The position numbers and the translations under genes were made by a program. A stretch of 64,000 nucleotides of DNA from a virus: IMG/VR virus record IMGVR_UViG_3300037859_000002, positions 47,212-111,211 of that record. One strand, given 5' to 3'. Positions 105 to 62,942 of this stretch are shown piece by piece (positions within the stretch are counted from its first letter, which is position 1; each line of letters starts with the position of its first letter). The notes under the pieces are model-generated. The model saw nothing but the letters and a program-made list of their open reading frames with translations. It did not search any database and was not told the origin of the DNA.

Positions 105-167
105 GCGCTTTCGCCCGCCCATGCTGGGGCGGGCTCGTCAGTCCCCGCCACATGGCGGGGCGAGCGC
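105..167 (-). ncRNA. hammerhead ribozyme HH1, type III
   Basis: GCGCUC / stem I CCCCGCC-GGCGGGG / CUGACGA / stem II GCCCGCCC-GGGCGGGC / GAAA GCGC; triplet CUC. Confidence 0.9.
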
Positions 168-186
168 GACCGGGCGCTGGGCCCGG

Positions 187-699
187 TCACCAGTCTTCGG
201 CCAGGCTCTCATAGAGCCGGCCCGCTTCGTCGTATTCATGGACGGCGTGCCATTCGACCATCGCCAGTCGCTGGGGCAGCTCGGCGAATTTGAGATGCTT
301 GGCCCGGTCCGGCCACGAGAGCGTCGACCACCGGGCGGCAAGCCACCGGTCGACCTGCTCGCCCCAGTCCTCGCACAGACAGCCGTAGTTCTCGAGCTGC
401 TCGTGCAGCTCGAGGAGCGTGTCCATCGTGCCGTCCTGGCCCTCGTGGATGGCCAGGATTTCGATCTGTTGATCGATCTGGGGGAGGCCCAGCTCAGCGG
501 CGGTGAAGACCTTGCTGCTCGCGTTGTCGGGCCAGCCGAAGACGGAGAGCAGCATTCCCCAGTCGGCCTGGGCCCTGGGGCCATCGCTCGGGTTCCACCA
601 GCCGACGCCGAGCCAGGCCCCGAAGGGCGCGGGCAGACGGCGGCGGTCGAGCGGCGCGATCGAGCCGATGGCGATGGCGCGCATCATGTCGTTCGACAT
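187..699 (-). CDS. hypothetical protein
   Basis: 170-aa ORF bounded by HH2 and HH1, with RBS. Confidence 0.75.
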   Translation of the reverse strand: MSNDMMRAIAIGSIAPLDRRRLPAPFGAWLGVGWWNPSDGPRAQADWGMLLSVFGWPDNASSKVFTAAELGLPQIDQQIEILAIHEGQDGTMDTLLELHEQLENYGCLCEDWGEQVDRWLAARWSTLSWPDRAKHLKFAELPQRLAMVEWHAVHEYDEAGRLYESLAEDW

Positions 700-1220: not shown

Positions 1221-1229
1221 GTGGGTCGT

Positions 1230-1299
1230 GTTCCTCTTCAGTGCCACCCTGATTGGTGGCAGACCCACCCTGGCGTGGGGCCAGGGTGGTTTCGGATCA
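1230..1299 (-). ncRNA. hammerhead ribozyme HH3, type II
   Basis: UGAUCC GAAA / stem III CACCCUGGC-GCCAGGGUG / GUC / UGCCACC-GGUGGCA / CUGAAGA GGAAC. Confidence 0.9.
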
Positions 1300-1539
1300 G
1301 GCTGGTCGCAGACTGACGACCTTGCCGCCCGAGGTGTTCATGACGCGTCGGGCCAGCAGTTCCTGGCGGCGTTCGTGGGTGAGCCCCGCGAGGGGCAGGG
1401 CCACGATCAGCAGGGCCAGCATTGGCAGCGCCCCGGCCGCGGCCGCGATGGGCACGAGCCTGTCGATGGCGTAGCCGATGGCCAGGCCGATGCCGATTTC
1501 GCCGGCAAAGAGCAGCCGTTCGAGCGTCGGTTCTTCCAT
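1297..1539 (-). CDS. small membrane protein
   Basis: 80 aa with two hydrophobic segments; bounded by HH4 and HH3. Confidence 0.7.
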   Translation of the reverse strand: MEEPTLERLLFAGEIGIGLAIGYAIDRLVPIAAAAGALPMLALLIVALPLAGLTHERRQELLARRVMNTSGGKVVSLRPA

Positions 1540-1545
1540 GGGAGT

Positions 1546-1616
1546 TGATCCTCTTCAGCGCCACCTTGATTGGTGGCCGACGCGCCCCGGCCATGGGCCA
1601 GGGCGGTTTCGGATCA
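1546..1616 (-). ncRNA. hammerhead ribozyme HH4, type II (identical to HH20)
   Basis: UGAUCC GAAA...GUC G GCCACC-GGUGGC G CUGAAGA GGAUCA; perfect 6-bp stem II. Confidence 0.92.
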
Positions 1617-1973
1617 GGCGGGTCGGTCAGGATGGTAGTCGAGCGCGCGCTTCAGCCGTGCGACCAGCGTACGTGGCTTGCTCTCGAGGCCGAACAGCGA
1701 CTCGGACACCTGCTTTGTGATGCCAAAGAACACGGGTCCGATGGACTCGCTGCGGACTTCCTGTTCCCCGACAAAGGGGAACAACATGCGCCCGTCGTCG
1801 AACAGGTGGCGCAGCGTCAGTCCCTCGTTCTGCATCTCGGGCGTCATGGCCGCGTGGCCGATGATGCACCCGGGGCTGCCACAGAAGTCGGTCCAGCGGG
1901 TCATCACCAGCTGATCGGGCGGAATGCTCGCCGCCAGGTCGGTGACGAAGGCCAGCCTCTCGTAGGGTGTCAT
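1614..1973 (-). CDS. CGxxxCIxGH family protein (paralogue 1)
   Basis: CGSPGCIIGH..PEMQNEGL; similar to 2617-2997 and 62482-62865. Confidence 0.75.
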   Translation of the reverse strand: MTPYERLAFVTDLAASIPPDQLVMTRWTDFCGSPGCIIGHAAMTPEMQNEGLTLRHLFDDGRMLFPFVGEQEVRSESIGPVFFGITKQVSESLFGLESKPRTLVARLKRALDYHPDRPA

Positions 1974-1980
1974 GCGCGTG

Positions 1981-2051
1981 GTTCCTCTTCAGGCCCGCGG
2001 GATTGCGGGCAGAGCGGCCCCGCCGCGGTGCGACGGGGTGCTTTCGGATCA
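1981..2051 (-). ncRNA. hammerhead ribozyme HH5, type II
   Basis: UGAUCC GAAA GC...GCUC U GCCCGC-GCGGGC CUGAAGA GGAAC; one extra U after the cleavage triplet. Confidence 0.85.
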
Positions 2052-2252
2052 GTCTTCGGGAGGCGCCCTCACCACGGGATACGGGTAGCCCAGCGCGGTC
2101 ATGACCCGTTCGTGGATCTCGCACGCGTGGTCCCGGTCTTCCTCGTTCCAGGTGGGGCGGCCCTGCCGGCGGCGCCGGCGGTGGGCCGCGTCGGTGCCCG
2201 CCGCGTGGGCGAGCCCGAGGGCCTCCTGGTAGCTGTCAGCGCGGATGGGCAT
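2049..2252 (-). CDS. hypothetical protein
   Basis: short ORF overlapping its upstream gene and ending in HH5; start uncertain. Confidence 0.6.
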   Translation of the reverse strand: MPIRADSYQEALGLAHAAGTDAAHRRRRRQGRPTWNEEDRDHACEIHERVMTALGYPYPVVRAPPED

Positions 2253-2541
2253 CGACGCCCTCGCCGTTGACGGCGTGGCCCACCAGGGTGCCGTAGCGGC
2301 GCCTGGTCGCGTGGGCCATCATGGCCAGGGCTTCGCGCACGCGGCGGGCATCGGCCGCGATCGACAGGAGCTCCGTTTCGGGCACCTGTTCGACCCCCTC
2401 GGGAAAGCGTTGCTGGATCTGCTCGGCGATGTCCTGCACGAGCCTGCAGCAGGCTTTCATCTGGGTGGCCACGGCGTTGCCCGAGGGCATGGAGTCGAGC
2501 GCGAGCGTGAGCCAGTCGTCGGGCAGTTGGTGTTGAGGCAT
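2236..2541 (-). CDS. hypothetical protein
   Basis: 101-aa ORF; RBS lies in HH6. Confidence 0.7.
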   Translation of the reverse strand: MPQHQLPDDWLTLALDSMPSGNAVATQMKACCRLVQDIAEQIQQRFPEGVEQVPETELLSIAADARRVREALAMMAHATRRRYGTLVGHAVNGEGVDAHPR

Positions 2542-2546
2542 CTGGT

Positions 2547-2619
2547 TGATCCTCTTCAGTGCCGGCGATGGTGCCGGCCGAGCGTCCCCGCCGCGATGCG
2601 ACGGGGCGCTTTCGGATCA
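2547..2619 (-). ncRNA. hammerhead ribozyme HH6, type II
   Basis: UGAUCC GAAA GCG..CGCUC G GCCGGC-GCCGGC A CUGAAGA GGAUCA. Confidence 0.92.
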
Positions 2620-2997: not shown

Positions 2998-3003
2998 TGG
3001 TTT

Positions 3004-3073
3004 GCTCCTCTTCAGGCCCGCGGGATTGCGGGCGACCGCCCCGCCCCGGTGTGGGGCGGGGGGTTTCGTCAGC
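3004..3073 (-). ncRNA. hammerhead ribozyme HH7, type II (weak stem II)
   Basis: GCUGAC GAAA CC..GGUC GCCCGC-GCGGGC CUGAAGA GGAGC. Confidence 0.8.
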
Positions 3074-3248
3074 GCGTCGTGGCCGTTTGCTGGGGCGCCA
3101 TGGTGCGGACCAGTCGCTGGCGCAGGGCCTCGACCCTGTTCCAGGCCGTCCAGTCGGTGGCCTGGCTCTGGGTCGCCACCTGCTGACCGTAACTGGTCAG
3201 CGCCGTGATCAGCGTCAGCAGCTCGTCCTCGTCGAGGGCGATGTTCAT
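3069..3248 (-). CDS. hypothetical protein
   Basis: MNIALDEDELL... ORF with ATGA overlap to the upstream gene. Confidence 0.65.
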   Translation of the reverse strand: MNIALDEDELLTLITALTSYGQQVATQSQATDWTAWNRVEALRQRLVRTMAPQQTATTR

Positions 3249-3643: not shown

Positions 3644-3708
3644 TCTCGTTTCGCGCCCACGAACCGGCGGGCGCTCGTCGGCGCCTCTCACATGAGAGGC
3701 GAACGAGA
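3644..3708 (-). ncRNA. hammerhead ribozyme HH8, type III, CCGACGA core variant
   Basis: UCUCGUU / CGCCUCUC-GAGAGGCG / CCGACGA / GCGCCCGC-GUGGGCGC / GAAA CGAGA. Confidence 0.8.
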
Positions 3709-4016: not shown

Positions 4017-4117
4017 CGGCTGCCTCTTCGGCACAGGATGGGGGCCCACATCGCTGTGGATGCACGCCGCGGCTCCTTCCTCGCGGGAGGGGCGCGCGCG
4101 CGCATTTCGATCAGCCG
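4017..4117 (-). ncRNA. hammerhead ribozyme HH9, type II, CCGAAGA core variant
   Basis: CGGCUGAUC GAAA UGCGCGC..GCGUGCAUC CACAG..CUGUG CCGAAGA GGCAGCCG; triplet AUC. Confidence 0.75.
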
Positions 4118-4362: not shown

Positions 4363-4418
4363 CCCTTTCGCCGGCGGCTGGCCGGCTCGTCAGCCCCCAC
4401 CAGGTGGTGGGGAAAGGG
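4363..4418 (-). ncRNA. hammerhead ribozyme HH10, type III
   Basis: CCCUU / UCCCCACC-GGUGGGGG / CUGACGA / GCCGGC-GCCGGC / GAAA GGG. Confidence 0.9.
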
Positions 4419-4442
4419 GCCGCCCCCCGCAGGGGGCGGTCG

Positions 4443-4685
4443 TCAGTCCCGTCGGTCGATCCAGTAGCGCGGCACCCGATGATCGGGTGGGAAGCCGAAG
4501 CTCCCATCCTGCTCGAGGGTGACCACGATGGTCTCGGGGGTCTCGATCGCGACGGTGTCGACCACGACGAGCTCGAACTGGAATGTCGTGTTCGTGCTGT
4601 CGGCGTCGGCGTAGCGGTCGCCCGCGAGGTCGATGACCGACCCCGGTGTGAGGTCGGCCACCCGAACCATTTCGGGCGCGATCAT
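4443..4685 (-). CDS. hypothetical protein
   Basis: MIAPEMVRVADL..., ATGA overlap with upstream gene. Confidence 0.65.
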   Translation of the reverse strand: MIAPEMVRVADLTPGSVIDLAGDRYADADSTNTTFQFELVVVDTVAIETPETIVVTLEQDGSFGFPPDHRVPRYWIDRRD

Positions 4686-4950: not shown

Positions 4951-5008
4951 CCCTTTCGCCGGCATGCTGGCCGGCTCATCAGTCCGCCCCATCAGGGAGC
5001 GGAAAGGG
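4951..5008 (-). ncRNA. hammerhead ribozyme HH11, type III
   Basis: CCCUU / UCCGC.CCC-GGGGCGGA / CUGAUGA / GCCGGC-GCCGGC / GAAA GGG. Confidence 0.92.
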
Positions 5009-5058
5009 CGACGCGCCCGCCCCAGCCTTGGGGCCAGAGCGGGCGCGCGTCGTTGGTT

Positions 5059-7392: not shown

Positions 7393-7469
7393 TGCAGGGT
7401 AGAGCAGCCCGGTAGCTCGTCTGGCTCATAACCAGAAGGTCGCCCGTTCGAATCGGGCCTCTGCAACCA
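7393..7469 (+). tRNA. tRNA-Met (CAT), initiator-like
   Basis: full cloverleaf; GAGCAGCCCGGTAGCTC D arm; CT-CAT-AA loop; TTCGAAT; encoded CCA. Confidence 0.92.
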
Positions 7470-8021: not shown

Positions 8022-8096
8022 GCCCCGCTAGCTCAATGGCAGAGCGCCCCCTTTGTAAGGGGATGGTTGCCGGGTCGAAACCGGCGCGGGGCTCCA
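8022..8096 (+). tRNA. tRNA-Thr (TGT)
   Basis: cloverleaf GCCCCGC...GCGGGGC T CCA; TT-TGT-AA loop; atypical T loop GTCGAAA. Confidence 0.88.
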
Positions 8097-35486: not shown

Positions 35487-38400
35487 ATGGACGTGGCCAG
35501 CCTCTCCTTCTCGATCGACAGCGGCCCGGCGGAACGGGCCATCACCTCGCTCGACCGGCTTCGCTCCTCGGCCGACAGCATGGGCCGCTCAAGCGCCCAG
35601 CTGAACCAGCAGTTCAGCCAGGGGGTGCGCTCGCTCACCGACTACCAGCGCGCGACCCTGCTGTTGGGCGAGACCGCGAGCAAGACGGCCAAGAGCCTGG
35701 ACGACCTGGTGGGCAAGATGGATACCCTGACCAGGGGCAGCGTCTTCTCCGGCGGCTCGGGCATGATGGAGCTGCAGAAGCAGCTCGAGAGCATGAGCCG
35801 CCTGTATGGCCAGTCGGCCGCCTCGGCCGAGAACTTCGTGCGCGCGACCCGCGCGATCGGGCTCTCCGCGGGCGAAACCTCGACGGCGCTCCAACGCATC
35901 ACCCTCGCACTCGAGAACGTCACGGCCGAGGGCCGCCAGGCGCGCTCGGTCCTAGAGCAGTATGGCGTGACCCTGAACGGGCTGGGCCTGCGTGACGCCG
36001 AGAGCGTGCTCCGCAATTTCACCAGCAGCGTTCGGGGTTCGCGCGACAGCCTGCAGCGCACCCGCGACATCCAGATGGTCTTCGGCCCCCTGTCGAGCGA
36101 GAGCGCAGACGCGCTCAGTCGCCAGCGGTTTCTCACCGAGGACCAAAGGCGCCGCGATCTCGAGAGCAACGACGCGAGCCGCCGGGCCGCCGCGGCCCGT
36201 GAGCTGGCTTCTGGGGGCGCCTCCTTGGCCGAGCGCAACCGCGCGAGCCTCGAGGCGCTGCGCTCCGACTTCGGCATGCAGGGCCCCGACCTCGGCCGCA
36301 TGTTCCGCTTCGGCCAGAGCGAGCGCGACGTGCTGCTCTCGCGGCGCAACCAGTACGAGGCCTTCCGGCGCGGCGAGGGCCCGGCCCCGGATGGGCTGCT
36401 CAACATCTACGCCAACCAGGCCACGGACCGGATGTTCGGTGGCATCCGGCGCTGGTACGACAATTTCGCCACCGGGGGCTTCGCCGCCCGCCAGGGTGTG
36501 GCCGGGGCCGCCAGCGACTTCTTCAGCGGTGACGTGGGACCCATCACGGGCGCCTATGCGTATGCGTCGATCACGGCGCGAAATCTGCTGAACATGGGGC
36601 CCAGCGACTATGAGGGCCGGCTGCAGCGCGCGATCGAGGAAAATCGCCTGCCCGAGAGTGCCCGCGACCGCCAGATGCGCCGGCTCAGCCAGGCCCAGTC
36701 CCTTCAGCTGATGGGCGACACCGGCATGGCCGGTCTGGTGGCGGCTGAGAGCGCCAACGAGGAACTGGTCCGCAACTACATCCCCACCGCGACGGGCGCG
36801 GGCATCGCCCTGCCCGACGCCCAGCGGCGCTTCAACCGGATCTACGGCAGCAACGCCTTCCGCGGCTCGGTCGCGGCCGATCCGTCCATCGGTTTCGACT
36901 ACCAGGCGCGCCTGCAGGGCGGCAACCTCGACAGCGTCGGGGCCTTCCAGCGCCGGCTGTTCGCCGCGCAGTACGCCCAGAGCCTGGGCATCAGCCCATC
37001 GGACTTCGATCTCGGCGGCGAGAACCTGTTTACCCAGGGGGAATCCGACGTCTTTGGACGGCTCTTCGCGAGCCAGACCTCGGCGCCGATCCTGCGCCAG
37101 TCCAACACCCAGCGTCGGCTCTCTGAGAATGTCGGGGGTGCCGTGCGCGGCGGCTTTAACCGCGGTGAGCGGGGCGCCGCGATCGAGGACCTACAGACCT
37201 CGGAACTCGCCTACCAGCAGGTGCTCGAGCAGACGGGCGATCGCGTGCGCGCCCTGGCCGTGGCCGAGAACGAACTGGCCCAGGCGCGGGATCGGCGCCG
37301 CACCGCCGCGGTCGCCACGATCGCCCAGATGAAGGACGAGGCCGAGGCCGCCGAGACGCTGGCTCGCGCCCTGGGCGGCTTCCCCGGTTCGCAGGCGGAC
37401 GTTGCGCGCGGCTACCGCGCCCAGCTGGGCATCGAGACCCGCCGGCGCTTCGAGGCCAACCCTCTCGAGGGGACAGAGGACGAGATTCGCCAGCGCCTGG
37501 CGCGTCGGGACACCGGGCAGTTTCTCATCCAGGGCCAGGGCCGGATCTCGGATCTGCGTGGCCAGGCCGAGATCAGTCGCGCCCTGCTCGCGGCCGTGCC
37601 GCGAGGGAGCCTCGCGGTCGAGGACGCCCAGCGCAACGCGAGCATCGACCGGGAAGAGGCCCAGGGCCTGGCCCGGGCTCGCGCCGCCGGCGACGTCGAG
37701 GCCGAGCAGGCCATCCGGTCGTACATCGCCTCGCTGCGCGAGCAGTCTCAAGCCACCGCCGAGGCCGGTCGCGCGGTCGCGACCCTGACGTCCCAGATGC
37801 GCGTCCTCGCCTCGATCGAGACCTCCAACGAGCTCGCGGGCATGAACCAGGGCCAGCAGCAGCGCGAGCAGTTCGTGCTCAACCAGGCGCGCGGCCGCGC
37901 CGGATTGGAGAACGCCACGCCCTCCACGGTGCCGCCCGAAGTGCGCGCCGAGCTCGAGGCCCTCTACGAGGCCCAGAGGCGGCCCGGGAACCGTGTCGCC
38001 ATCGACAACGCGCGTCAGCGTGAGGCCCTGGCCCGCGCCGGGGTCGCCCCCACGGGCGCGGGCGCCGCAGCCGCCAGGGCGCGTGTGGCGCGCCAGTTCG
38101 CGATCGGCACCCAGGGCGAGGATCCGGCCGTTGCCGACGCCAACTACCGGGCCGCCCTGTCCGAAATCGGCTCGGGCGTCGCCGGCTCGGGCGTCCAGGG
38201 GATCTTCCAGACAGAGCAGGACACGCTGGCGCGCGCGCGGCGCACCAATGCGCTGCTCACGCGCGGGCGCGCGGGTGCCGCGATCGAGGGCATCGACGCC
38301 CAGGTGGCCCAGCGCATCGCCCTGGGCGGGGCCGCCGCGGGGCAGGGGCCGGCCCTGCGGGGCGCCCTGCTCGGGAACCTGGTCGAAAGCGAGCGCGGCG

Positions 38401-60214: not shown

Positions 60215-60283
60215 TCCTCTTCATGGGGATGATTCCCCGACCGTTCCCCCTGAGTCAAAGCTCAGGGGGCCGGTTTCGGATCA
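60215..60283 (-). ncRNA. hammerhead-like RNA HH15, type II, AUGAAGA core variant
   Basis: UGAUCC GAAA CCG..CGGUC GGGGA-UCCCC AUGAAGA GGA. Confidence 0.7.
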
Positions 60284-60799: not shown

Positions 60800-60870
60800 T
60801 GACCTCGTCAGCGCCGGCGATGGTGCCGGCCGAGCGTCCCCGCCGCGATGCGACGGGGCGCTTTCGGTCA
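60800..60870 (-). ncRNA. hammerhead ribozyme HH16, type II (near copy of HH6)
   Basis: UGACC GAAA...CUC G GCCGGC-GCCGGC G CUGACGA GGUCA; compensatory one-pair indel in stem II relative to HH6. Confidence 0.92.
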
Positions 60871-61618: not shown

Positions 61619-61673
61619 CCCTTTCGCCGGCGTGCTGGCCGGCTCTTCAGCCCCGCCGATGGGCGGGGAAGGG
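61619..61673 (-). ncRNA. hammerhead ribozyme HH18, type III
   Basis: CCCUU / CCCCGCC-GGCGGGG / CUGAAGA / GCCGGC-GCCGGC / GAAA GGG. Confidence 0.92.
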
Positions 61674-61682
61674 CGCCCGCGG

Positions 61683-61916
61683 CTACGGGGCGGGCGGCAG
61701 GACGCGGATGGTTTCGCCCGTCGTCTGCGATGAGCAGGCGAAGCTCGCGCCCCTGGACTGGGTTTGGTAAATCAGCCGCCGCGTGGCTTCGCCAGCGGTC
61801 TGGCATGCCTCCAATGAGGCATAGACCGCGGTCATGACCGTCGGCGGAACCGTCGGTGGATTGGCAACCACGCCCGGGCTGCTCCAGATCCAGAATATCA
61901 GCACCCATCCGGACAT
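61683..61916 (-). CDS. small hypothetical protein
   Basis: GGAGG RBS; hydrophobic N-terminus; SLEACQ...FACS. Confidence 0.65.
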   Translation of the reverse strand: MSGWVLIFWIWSSPGVVANPPTVPPTVMTAVYASLEACQTAGEATRRLIYQTQSRGASFACSSQTTGETIRVLPPAP

Positions 61917-62408: not shown

Positions 62409-62413
62409 CAGGT

Positions 62414-62484
62414 TGATCCTCTTCAGCGCCACCTTGATTGGTGGCCGACGCGCCCCGGCCATGGGCCAGGGCGGTTTCGGATCA
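62414..62484 (-). ncRNA. hammerhead ribozyme HH20, type II (identical to HH4)
   Basis: same 71 nt as 1546-1616. Confidence 0.92.
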
Positions 62485-62865
62485 GGCTTCGACACGCTCT
62501 TCCAGGAGCTGGTCCATCAGGGCCAGCTGCCGAGCCTTGGTTTCTTCCCCTGCCGGAGCAATGAGGTCGTAAAACAAAGCAGTCACCATCCTGGGATCAT
62601 TGATACCGAAGAACTTGGCCAGTTCCTGCGGTCTGTTGTGGAACAGCCCATGGATGCTGAGGCTCCCCGTGAGCGGCAATAGATTCAGTCCCTCGGCCTG
62701 GAGGACGGGATCCATGGCACCGTGTCCTGCGATGCACGCGGTGGTGCCGCACACGGACCTCCATTTGGCCATCTCGATCGTCTCGGCCGGGGTATCGGCG
62801 ATGACCTCGCGGAGGCGGGCGAGCCGCTGCCGCGGGGTCAGGCCGACGCGTTTTTGGAACTTCAT
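62482..62865 (-). CDS. CGxxxCIxGH family protein (paralogue 3)
   Basis: GLTPRQRLARLR..CGTTACIAGHGAMDPVLQAEGL. Confidence 0.8.
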   Translation of the reverse strand: MKFQKRVGLTPRQRLARLREVIADTPAETIEMAKWRSVCGTTACIAGHGAMDPVLQAEGLNLLPLTGSLSIHGLFHNRPQELAKFFGINDPRMVTALFYDLIAPAGEETKARQLALMDQLLEERVEA

Positions 62866-62873
62866 CGGATAGC

Positions 62874-62942
62874 TCCTCTTCATGGGGATGATTCCCCGAC
62901 CGCTCCCCCCGAGTCAAAACCCAGGGGGGCGGTTTCGGATCA
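62874..62942 (-). ncRNA. hammerhead-like RNA HH21, type II, AUGAAGA core variant
   Basis: near copy of HH15. Confidence 0.7.

Follow-up and report, generated by a model that had tools for sequence, protein, structure and literature searches.

In the provirus studied here, predicted type II hammerhead ribozymes occupy the junctions between small genes in such a way that each of them begins with the UGA that terminates the gene upstream. As a whole, the arrangement is probably explained by a cassette, in which the upstream UGA would serve as the outer part of the 5' strand of stem II, the Shine-Dalgarno (SD) sequence of the downstream gene would form the end of the cassette, and predicted self-cleavage would take place between the two.

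The window analysed, a stretch of 64,000 nucleotides, corresponds to bases 47212-111211 of the 111,211-bp IMG/VR provirus record IMGVR_UViG_3300037859_000002, which has a GC content of 67.7%. A structural module, located between about 5.8 and 59.2 kb of the window on the plus strand, includes genes for the large terminase (TerL), portal, minor tail protein, tape measure and J-like tail fibre. The presence of the TerL, portal, tape-measure and J-like tail genes indicates that the element belongs to a phage. This module is flanked at both window ends by runs of small ORFs on the minus strand. For 10 of the flanking small proteins no Pfam family was found, no DNA matches to the flanking genes were present among GenBank phages, and no relatives were obtained in IMG/VR through the flanking proteins. 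A search of 5.8 billion proteins with the flanking proteins returned only paralogues on the provirus's own 382,506-bp contig. The setting is likely to be that of polycistronic small-gene operons of a siphovirus-like prophage, with the junctions occupied by type II hammerhead cassettes.

The first-pass annotation had listed 13 UGA stop codons situated 1-3 nt before the GAAA box of a hammerhead. All 13 were verified and all are on the minus strand, each of them reading TCA on the plus strand. The UGA is followed by UCC-GAAA at eight sites (1297, 1614, 2049, 2617, 60281, 62025, 62482 and 62940), by CC-GAAA at 60868 and 61337, by UC-GAAA at 4111, and by C-GAAA at 3069 and 59856. The open frames ended by these stop codons are 85-237 codons long with a GC3 of 0.68-0.91, and their codon-position GC pattern is coding-like (GC1>GC2<GC3); the predicted products of the upstream ORFs have lengths of 59-206 aa. 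A descriptor scan of the whole record, together with a covariance model (R1), revealed three further copies to the left of the window, at record positions 35653, 36101 and 37655, with TGA at the same place. The stop-codon rule is thus kept in all 16 copies of the 111-kb provirus.

Downstream of the GAAA box follow a GC-rich hairpin (stem III), a GUC, CUC or AUC triplet, a second hairpin (stem I), the CUGANGA box and a strand complementary to the bases preceding GAAA. This order of elements identifies the type II permutation of the hammerhead. The descriptor scan, MFE folds and covariation all show a three-way junction in which loops close stems I and III and stem II opens towards the flanks. 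Among the 13 window copies all core boxes are present in 10, and the NUH triplet is GUC in eight, CUC in four and AUC in one. Model R1, built from six copies, found 15 copies in the record at E < 1e-4, of which 12 are in the window and three to its left; the only window copy missed was the one at 4111. The alignment was made with the covariance model, since MAFFT applied to 12 copies had put the GAAA box out of register. In this model-fitted alignment, which leans towards R1, 93.9% of the cells are standard pairs versus 35-45% with slid partners, a large margin over these controls. Compensatory changes were observed in 13 of 19 pairs, and all three stems are supported. With Rfam at the gathering threshold, only two tRNAs were detected. 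The gathering score of RF02276 (37 bits) was reached by no copy, the best one scoring 31 bits (E 0.0027 on 6.5 kb), while sub-threshold matches to the Rfam Hammerhead_II model (17.5-31 bits) were present in nine of the 13 window copies and absent from the other four.

Six of the window copies, all on the minus strand, are located at the left end. HH1297 (1229..1299) reads UGA (1299-1297)-UCC-GAAA, with a GUC triplet, loop I AAUCA, the core box CUGAAGA and the 3' strand GGAACA; it scored 31 bits with RF02276 and 87.5 bits with R1, and its SD, GAGGA, lies 11 nt before the ATG at 1220. HH1614 (1546..1616; R1 94 bits) has a perfect stem II of 6 bp (UGAUCC/GGAUCA), and its MFE structure is the hammerhead junction. 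HH2049 (1980..2051; R1 88.9 bits) has the flanks UGAUCC and GGAACC, a CUC site and an extra U at 1.1. HH2617 (2547..2619; R1 99.2 bits) also has the 6-bp stem II UGAUCC/GGAUCA. In HH3069 (3003..3071; Rfam 22.7 bits, R1 38.1 bits) the sequence is UGAC-GAAA and stem II amounts essentially to 1 bp (C-G). The sixth is a hammerhead-like variant at 4111 (4018..4113) with UGAUC-GAAA, a long stem III, an AUC site, stem I CACAG/CUGUG and the core CCGAAGA. In this variant GGCUG/CAGCC would be able to form an outer stem II and the SD (AGGAG) lies outside the ribozyme; it matched the relaxed descriptor only, and both R1 and Rfam missed it.

The remaining seven, also on the minus strand, are at the right end. 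HH59856 (59788..59858; Rfam 19 bits, R1 32.3 bits) has UGAC-GAAA, the core CUGAGGA and a weak stem II. HH60281 (60212..60283; R1 29.3 bits) and its sister HH62940 (62871..62942; Rfam 17.5 bits, R1 28.4 bits) are type II hammerhead-like, with the core AUGAAGA (C3A). HH60868 (60800..60870; Rfam 21.4 bits, R1 84.5 bits) has a 5-bp stem II, UGACC/GGUCA, and in HH61337 (61269..61339; Rfam 23.8 bits, R1 50.2 bits) the corresponding strands UGACC/AGUCA carry an A10.1.C11.1 mismatch. HH62025 (61962..62027; Rfam 28 bits, R1 28.7 bits) has a short stem I, and the next gene starts 51 nt past its core with an SD of its own. HH62482 (62414..62484; R1 94 bits) is identical to HH1614.

Deviations from the hammerhead consensus were located at a few positions. 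The C3A core is found in 60281, 62940 and record 36101, a U4C core (CCGANGA) in 4111 and record 37655, and A10.1 in 61337, the core boxes of which are otherwise intact; four window copies are therefore non-consensus (C3A twice, U4C once, A10.1 once). The 15.1-16.1 pair is A-U in all copies and 10.1-11.1 is G-C except in 61337, while a mismatch at 1.1-2.1 occurs in 1614, 62482, 60868 and 2617 and a displacement in 2049. By the acceptance criteria of Perreault et al. (PMC3088659), under which deviant copies are rejected unless activity is shown, the four window copies with a non-consensus core or 10.1 and the four with 1.1-2.1 mismatches would be rejected absent an activity test. The copies lack the canonical pseudoknot of loop I with the 3' tail; loop I (AAUCA and similar) shares its letters with the 3' strand AUCA and is not its complement, and both are complementary to UGAU of the 5' strand. 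From the conserved boxes and the covarying stems, the assignment as predicted ribozymes is well supported for most copies.

It had also been proposed in the first-pass annotation that the UGA belongs to the 5' strand of stem II. This applies fully to eight of the 16 copies, in which UGA pairs with UCA in the unconstrained MFE fold, and only in part to the remainder. The full three-way-junction MFE with UGA(U)CC:GG(A)UCA was obtained for 1614, 2617, 60868, 61337, 62482 and record 35653, 36101 and 37655. The other eight have a stem II of 1-3 bp plus outer U-A and G-C pairs across an A.A or A.G mismatch. Over 14 distinct aligned copies (the 4111 variant being left out) the G of the UGA forms a G-C pair in 13, the U a U-A pair in nine and the A an A-U pair in six. 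HH2617 and HH60868 have stems I and III in common, and stem II of HH60868 is one base shorter on each strand (UGAUCC/GGAUCA versus UGACC/GGUCA), which represents a compensated indel of stem II. On the other side of the helix, the SD GAGGA consists of G8 and A9 of the catalytic core and the three bases at the start of the stem II 3' strand, of which G10.1, G10.2 and A10.3 pair with the 5' strand. In the predicted structure of this subfamily, the stop codon and the SD are held within one helix.

Repeats among the copies show what is carried along with the ribozyme. HH1614 and HH62482 are 100% identical over 76 nt, from 3 nt before the UGA to just past GGAUCAAC, with unrelated flanking genes, and HH60281 resembles HH62940 from 1 nt before the UGA as far as the next AUG. 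Since the repeat boundaries lie 1-3 nt 5' of the UGA, the stop codon is supplied by the cassette itself. The idea of a portable junction that combines stop and ribosome binding site in one unit, put forward in the initial reading, is supported by these boundaries at the stop and at the SD or start codon. Most of the positional regularity is explained by the copies being cassettes with their own stop and SD.

Type III hammerheads are also present in the same operons, and here the stop codon is located 12-83 nt away, in several cases with a spacer hairpin between stop and ribozyme. One such comparator (132..195, minus strand) has its UGA (187-189) 22 nt before stem III, with a spacer hairpin between them. 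After cleavage by a type III ribozyme, no terminal hairpin would remain on the upstream RNA, so the spacer hairpins support a logic of end protection. A type II ribozyme brings its own 3' hairpin and may therefore start at the stop codon without a spacer.

For comparison, IMG/VR was scanned with the canonical type II pattern, the upstream flank being unconstrained, followed by a structural descriptor filter. This gave 170 unique ribozymes; a clearly dominant ORF was present upstream of 132 of them, which come from 84 contigs. In 87 of these 132 (66%) the stop codon starts 4-12 nt before GAAA, with the mode at -5 or -6, and the commonest gaps between stop and stem II are 0 nt (21 cases) and -1 nt (13 cases). 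Stop usage was TAA 39, TGA 28 and TAG 21. In 134 of 165 cases an A lies immediately 5' of stem II, often derived from UAA or UGA, in agreement with position 1 of the Rfam consensus. As 66% of unrelated type II ribozymes lie near a stop, flush placement is a general habit of phage type II hammerheads. It has apparently not been described before: neither the main text of PMC3088659 nor PMC6765202 mentions stop codons or Shine-Dalgarno sequences in this context. A gap of -3, at which the whole stop is paired, occurred in two of 132 cases elsewhere versus eight of 16 here. The distance from core to start codon in the IMG/VR sample has a median of 22.5 nt, with 13% at or below 14 nt, whereas 13 of 16 copies in the provirus have about 7-14 nt, a shortness that results from the fusion of the SD to G8, A9 and stem II. 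Full pairing of the stop together with SD-core fusion appears, as judged from the predicted folds, to be peculiar to this subfamily, of which pattern scans of IMG/VR, GTDB genomes and JGI metagenomes gave no other member.

Relatives of the subfamily were searched with exact patterns, which near relatives with one mismatch would escape. The pattern CCGAAA..GTC..CTGAAGAGGA gave 72 loci in IMG/VR, essentially all due to chance, among which only one (L066) had two other hammerheads. With TCCGAAA..GTC..CTGANGAGGATCA, 25 matches in GTDB genomes and 32 in JGI metagenomes were obtained, all of them chance matches in coding sequence. As zero subfamily relatives or flanking-protein homologues were found elsewhere, evidence from independent lineages is absent. 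Too few type I and type III hammerheads turned up in the IMG/VR loci for a useful comparison.

Several other explanations of these junctions were considered. The elements could be GC-rich intergenic hairpin repeats (REP-like or mRNA-stabilising) with a chance resemblance to hammerheads, or decayed inactive copies. The sub-threshold level of every Rfam score and the deviations at C3, U4 and 10.1, with the mismatches at 1.1-2.1, agree with such a reading, which is nevertheless very unlikely, because 12 of 16 copies retain GAAA, CUGANGA and NUH with correct order and spacing, all three helices covary, and type III hammerheads with consensus cores occur at other junctions of the same operons. The layout moreover matches published prophage hammerhead clusters, which flank single genes and cleave in vitro (PMC3088659, Perreault et al. 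2011). If they are ribozymes, the UGA might still be a coincidence of composition, UGA being the usual stop in a genome of 68% GC with a ribozyme nearby by chance. In a crude GC3-based gene call, TGA accounts for 96 of 121 stops (about 79%), so that UGA identity is weak evidence and 13 out of 13 has a p of about 0.05. This accounts for the identity of the stop codon but not for its position: the distance to GAAA is always 1-3 nt (16 of 16 copies), the UGA varies no more than the catalytic core does, in contrast to completely changed stems I and III, and the repeats take in the UGA while the flanks are unrelated. An offset of -4 to -6 from GAAA was observed in 39 of the 132 unrelated type II hammerheads; 13 out of 13 at that offset would have a probability of about 1e-7 if the copies were independent, and as they are paralogous cassettes the effective number is nearer 10. 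The fixed stop position is not explained by base composition, and coincidence is highly improbable. A recoding signal, through which the UGA and a stable hairpin would favour readthrough or the insertion of selenocysteine, is the least credible explanation and practically dismissed. A stable hairpin (stem III) does begin 5-7 nt past the UGA, as such a signal would have it, but the downstream ATG lies in frame 0, 1 or 2 relative to the UGA without pattern, and in eight of 16 copies the next in-frame stop comes 19 codons on, inside the ribozyme core. Recoding was rejected by this frame analysis, and the UGA is taken as an ordinary stop.

A further explanation concerns why the stop is placed where it is. 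A ribosome protects about 10 nt 3' of its A site. On the UGA, this footprint would cover the stem II 5' strand, the GAAA box and the first bases of stem III, so that the ribozyme would be unable to be folded at that moment. Under translation gating, the stop placement would have been selected: ribosomes would hold the ribozyme unfolded, delay cleavage and unmask the SD, coupling processing and downstream initiation to translation of the upstream gene. In its favour, the strand that would be covered by the ribosome is the pairing partner of the SD bases G10.1, G10.2 and A10.3, and the stop is within footprint distance in the same 66% of 132 unrelated type II hammerheads. The time spent by a ribosome at a stop codon is short compared to typical hammerhead cleavage times, and this was counted against gating. 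Other points against it are that stem II has only 1-3 bp in half of the copies, and that compaction, topology and cassette inheritance predict flush placement equally. The type III junctions of the same operons, which keep their stops 12-83 nt off, also speak against it and imply that coupling is not a general requirement of these operons. A precedent exists for translation blocking a fold close to a stop: in E. coli, moving the stop to 5 bp before a terminator hairpin lowered termination efficiency from about 90% to under 10%, and the effect was relieved without translation (PMC4824070). The premise of the earlier reading, that a terminating ribosome would melt stem II and the core, is physically supported by the footprint together with this precedent. 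SD exposure was calculated by partition function for the intact, ribosome-blocked and cleaved states, with a result that varied with the flanks included. Selection of the stop placement for gating is regarded as rather unlikely, and translation-gated cleavage in this provirus, physically plausible as it is, remains doubtful. With similar reservation, phage type II hammerheads in general might be translation-sensing switches, in which the stop is kept within the footprint and stem II brings the terminating ribosome beside the downstream SD; the present copies, with stop and SD paired, would then be the extreme case.

Under the cassette explanation, which is preferred here, each junction would be a point at which a long minus-strand transcript is cleaved after the NUH site. 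The upstream product would then close with UGA-UCC-GAAA, followed by the GC-rich stem III hairpin and a cyclic phosphate. The downstream product would start with a 5'-OH and the stem I hairpin, and CUGAAGAGGAUCA would come next, separated from the AUG by about 5-9 nt. As stem II is the sole helix between the two products, the SD would lose its partner after cleavage. In the type II topology stem II is open to both flanks, which would let the stop sit in the ribozyme, and the cassette with its own stop and SD would be inherited and exchanged as a unit. A terminating ribosome on the UGA and a folded ribozyme would be mutually exclusive at any instant.

The copies share the GAAA, NUH and CUGANGA boxes with the prophage type II hammerheads of RF02276, as well as the flanking of single genes in prophage operons with type III ribozymes intermixed (PMC3088659). 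In the RF02276 consensus an A lies just 5' of a short stem II, a position that is filled here by the A of the UGA, and in half of the copies pairing between stop and UCA extends stem II to 5-6 bp. The copies further differ from RF02276 in their sub-threshold scores, the long GC-rich stem III and the loop I/3'-tail pseudoknot, which most type II members form by pairing loop I with the tail 3' of stem II (PMC3088659) and which is absent here. Pairing of the SD within a ribozyme, with release on cleavage or rearrangement, is known from synthetic aptazyme riboswitches (PMC12192606). Those are artificial constructs for a 5' UTR, in which the SD is part of an extended stem of a type I or type III ribozyme, whereas the present elements are natural and intercistronic, and their anti-SD strand also carries the upstream stop. 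The situation described by Li et al. 2015 (PMC4824070) is similar in that a stop lies a few nt before an RNA fold and the terminating ribosome prevents folding; there the fold is an intrinsic terminator acting during transcription, while here it is a predicted self-cleaving ribozyme.

The results also indicate that the Rfam type II model misses GC-rich variants, and the cassette, with a length of about 70 nt, may serve synthetic operons as a compact natural part that combines stop, insulator and ribosome binding site. In the literature, the biological role of hammerheads in bacteria and phages still counts as unsettled (PMC6765202). To this question a checkable architectural rule is added, namely that type II copies are flush with the upstream stop. 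The general notion of mRNA processing could thereby be replaced by a three-part model, in which the ribozymes would yield end-protected monocistronic mRNAs, cleavage would unmask the SD, and ribosome and ribozyme may possibly compete for the same RNA.

Other junctions of the same operons carry type III hammerheads (window positions 141-195, 4393-4448, 4982-5040 and 61650-61703, among others). At several of these a GC-rich spacer hairpin of 17-22 nt separates the upstream stop codon from stem III, and the Shine-Dalgarno sequence (AAAGGG/AGGA) is located inside or after the 3' strand of stem III. Ribozyme-free junctions, where the genes overlap, also occur in the arrays. An ATGA start/stop overlap was found at 3245-3248 and an overlap of 17 nt at 2236-2252; both are classical translational coupling adjoining ribozyme junctions. 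Two tRNA genes on the plus strand, at 7393-7466 (Rfam, 61.9 bits) and 8022-8093 (56.5 bits), lie immediately upstream of the terminase region.

A type II array is also present in an unrelated viral contig, L148 (IMGVR_UViG_3300017605_000570), where 11 or more type II hammerheads, all canonical, fall within approximately 7 kb. Many of them contain UAG-C or UGA-GC, the stop codon touching or overlapping a stem II of 2 bp.

Within loop I, AUC is found in 15 of the 16 type II copies of the provirus (e.g. 1254-1258 and 1571-1576), the loop forms including AAUCA, AAUCAA and AAUCCC. The same letters make up the 3' strand of stem II (AUCA), and UGAU is complementary to both. This complementarity could allow an alternative or tertiary pairing to take over from the canonical pseudoknot that joins loop I to the 3' tail.

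Three copies carry AUGAAGA, a non-consensus core (C3A), at 60218-60224 and 62877-62883 of the window and at L193:6034-6110 (record positions 36034-36110), a locus of the same record to the left of the window. All three share the stem I GGGGA-AUCA-UCCCC, while the differences in stem III from copy to copy preserve the structure; the variant therefore looks maintained and not newly broken. A second core variant, CCGANGA (U4C), is recurrent in both topologies, with three otherwise well-formed copies: 4025-4031 (type II-like), 3675-3681 (type III) and L193:7605-7664. At L193:7375-7447 (record 37375-37447) a weak match of 20.7 bits was obtained with R1, the covariance model built from six type II copies of this provirus. 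Here GAAA and stems I and III are present, with UGACAA where CUGANGA is expected, and this is probably a decayed hammerhead copy.

The ribozyme copies at 1544-1619 and 62412-62487 are 100% identical over 76 nt; they are 61 kb apart and their neighbouring genes are unrelated. This suggests that the junction cassette has recently been copied or gene-converted.
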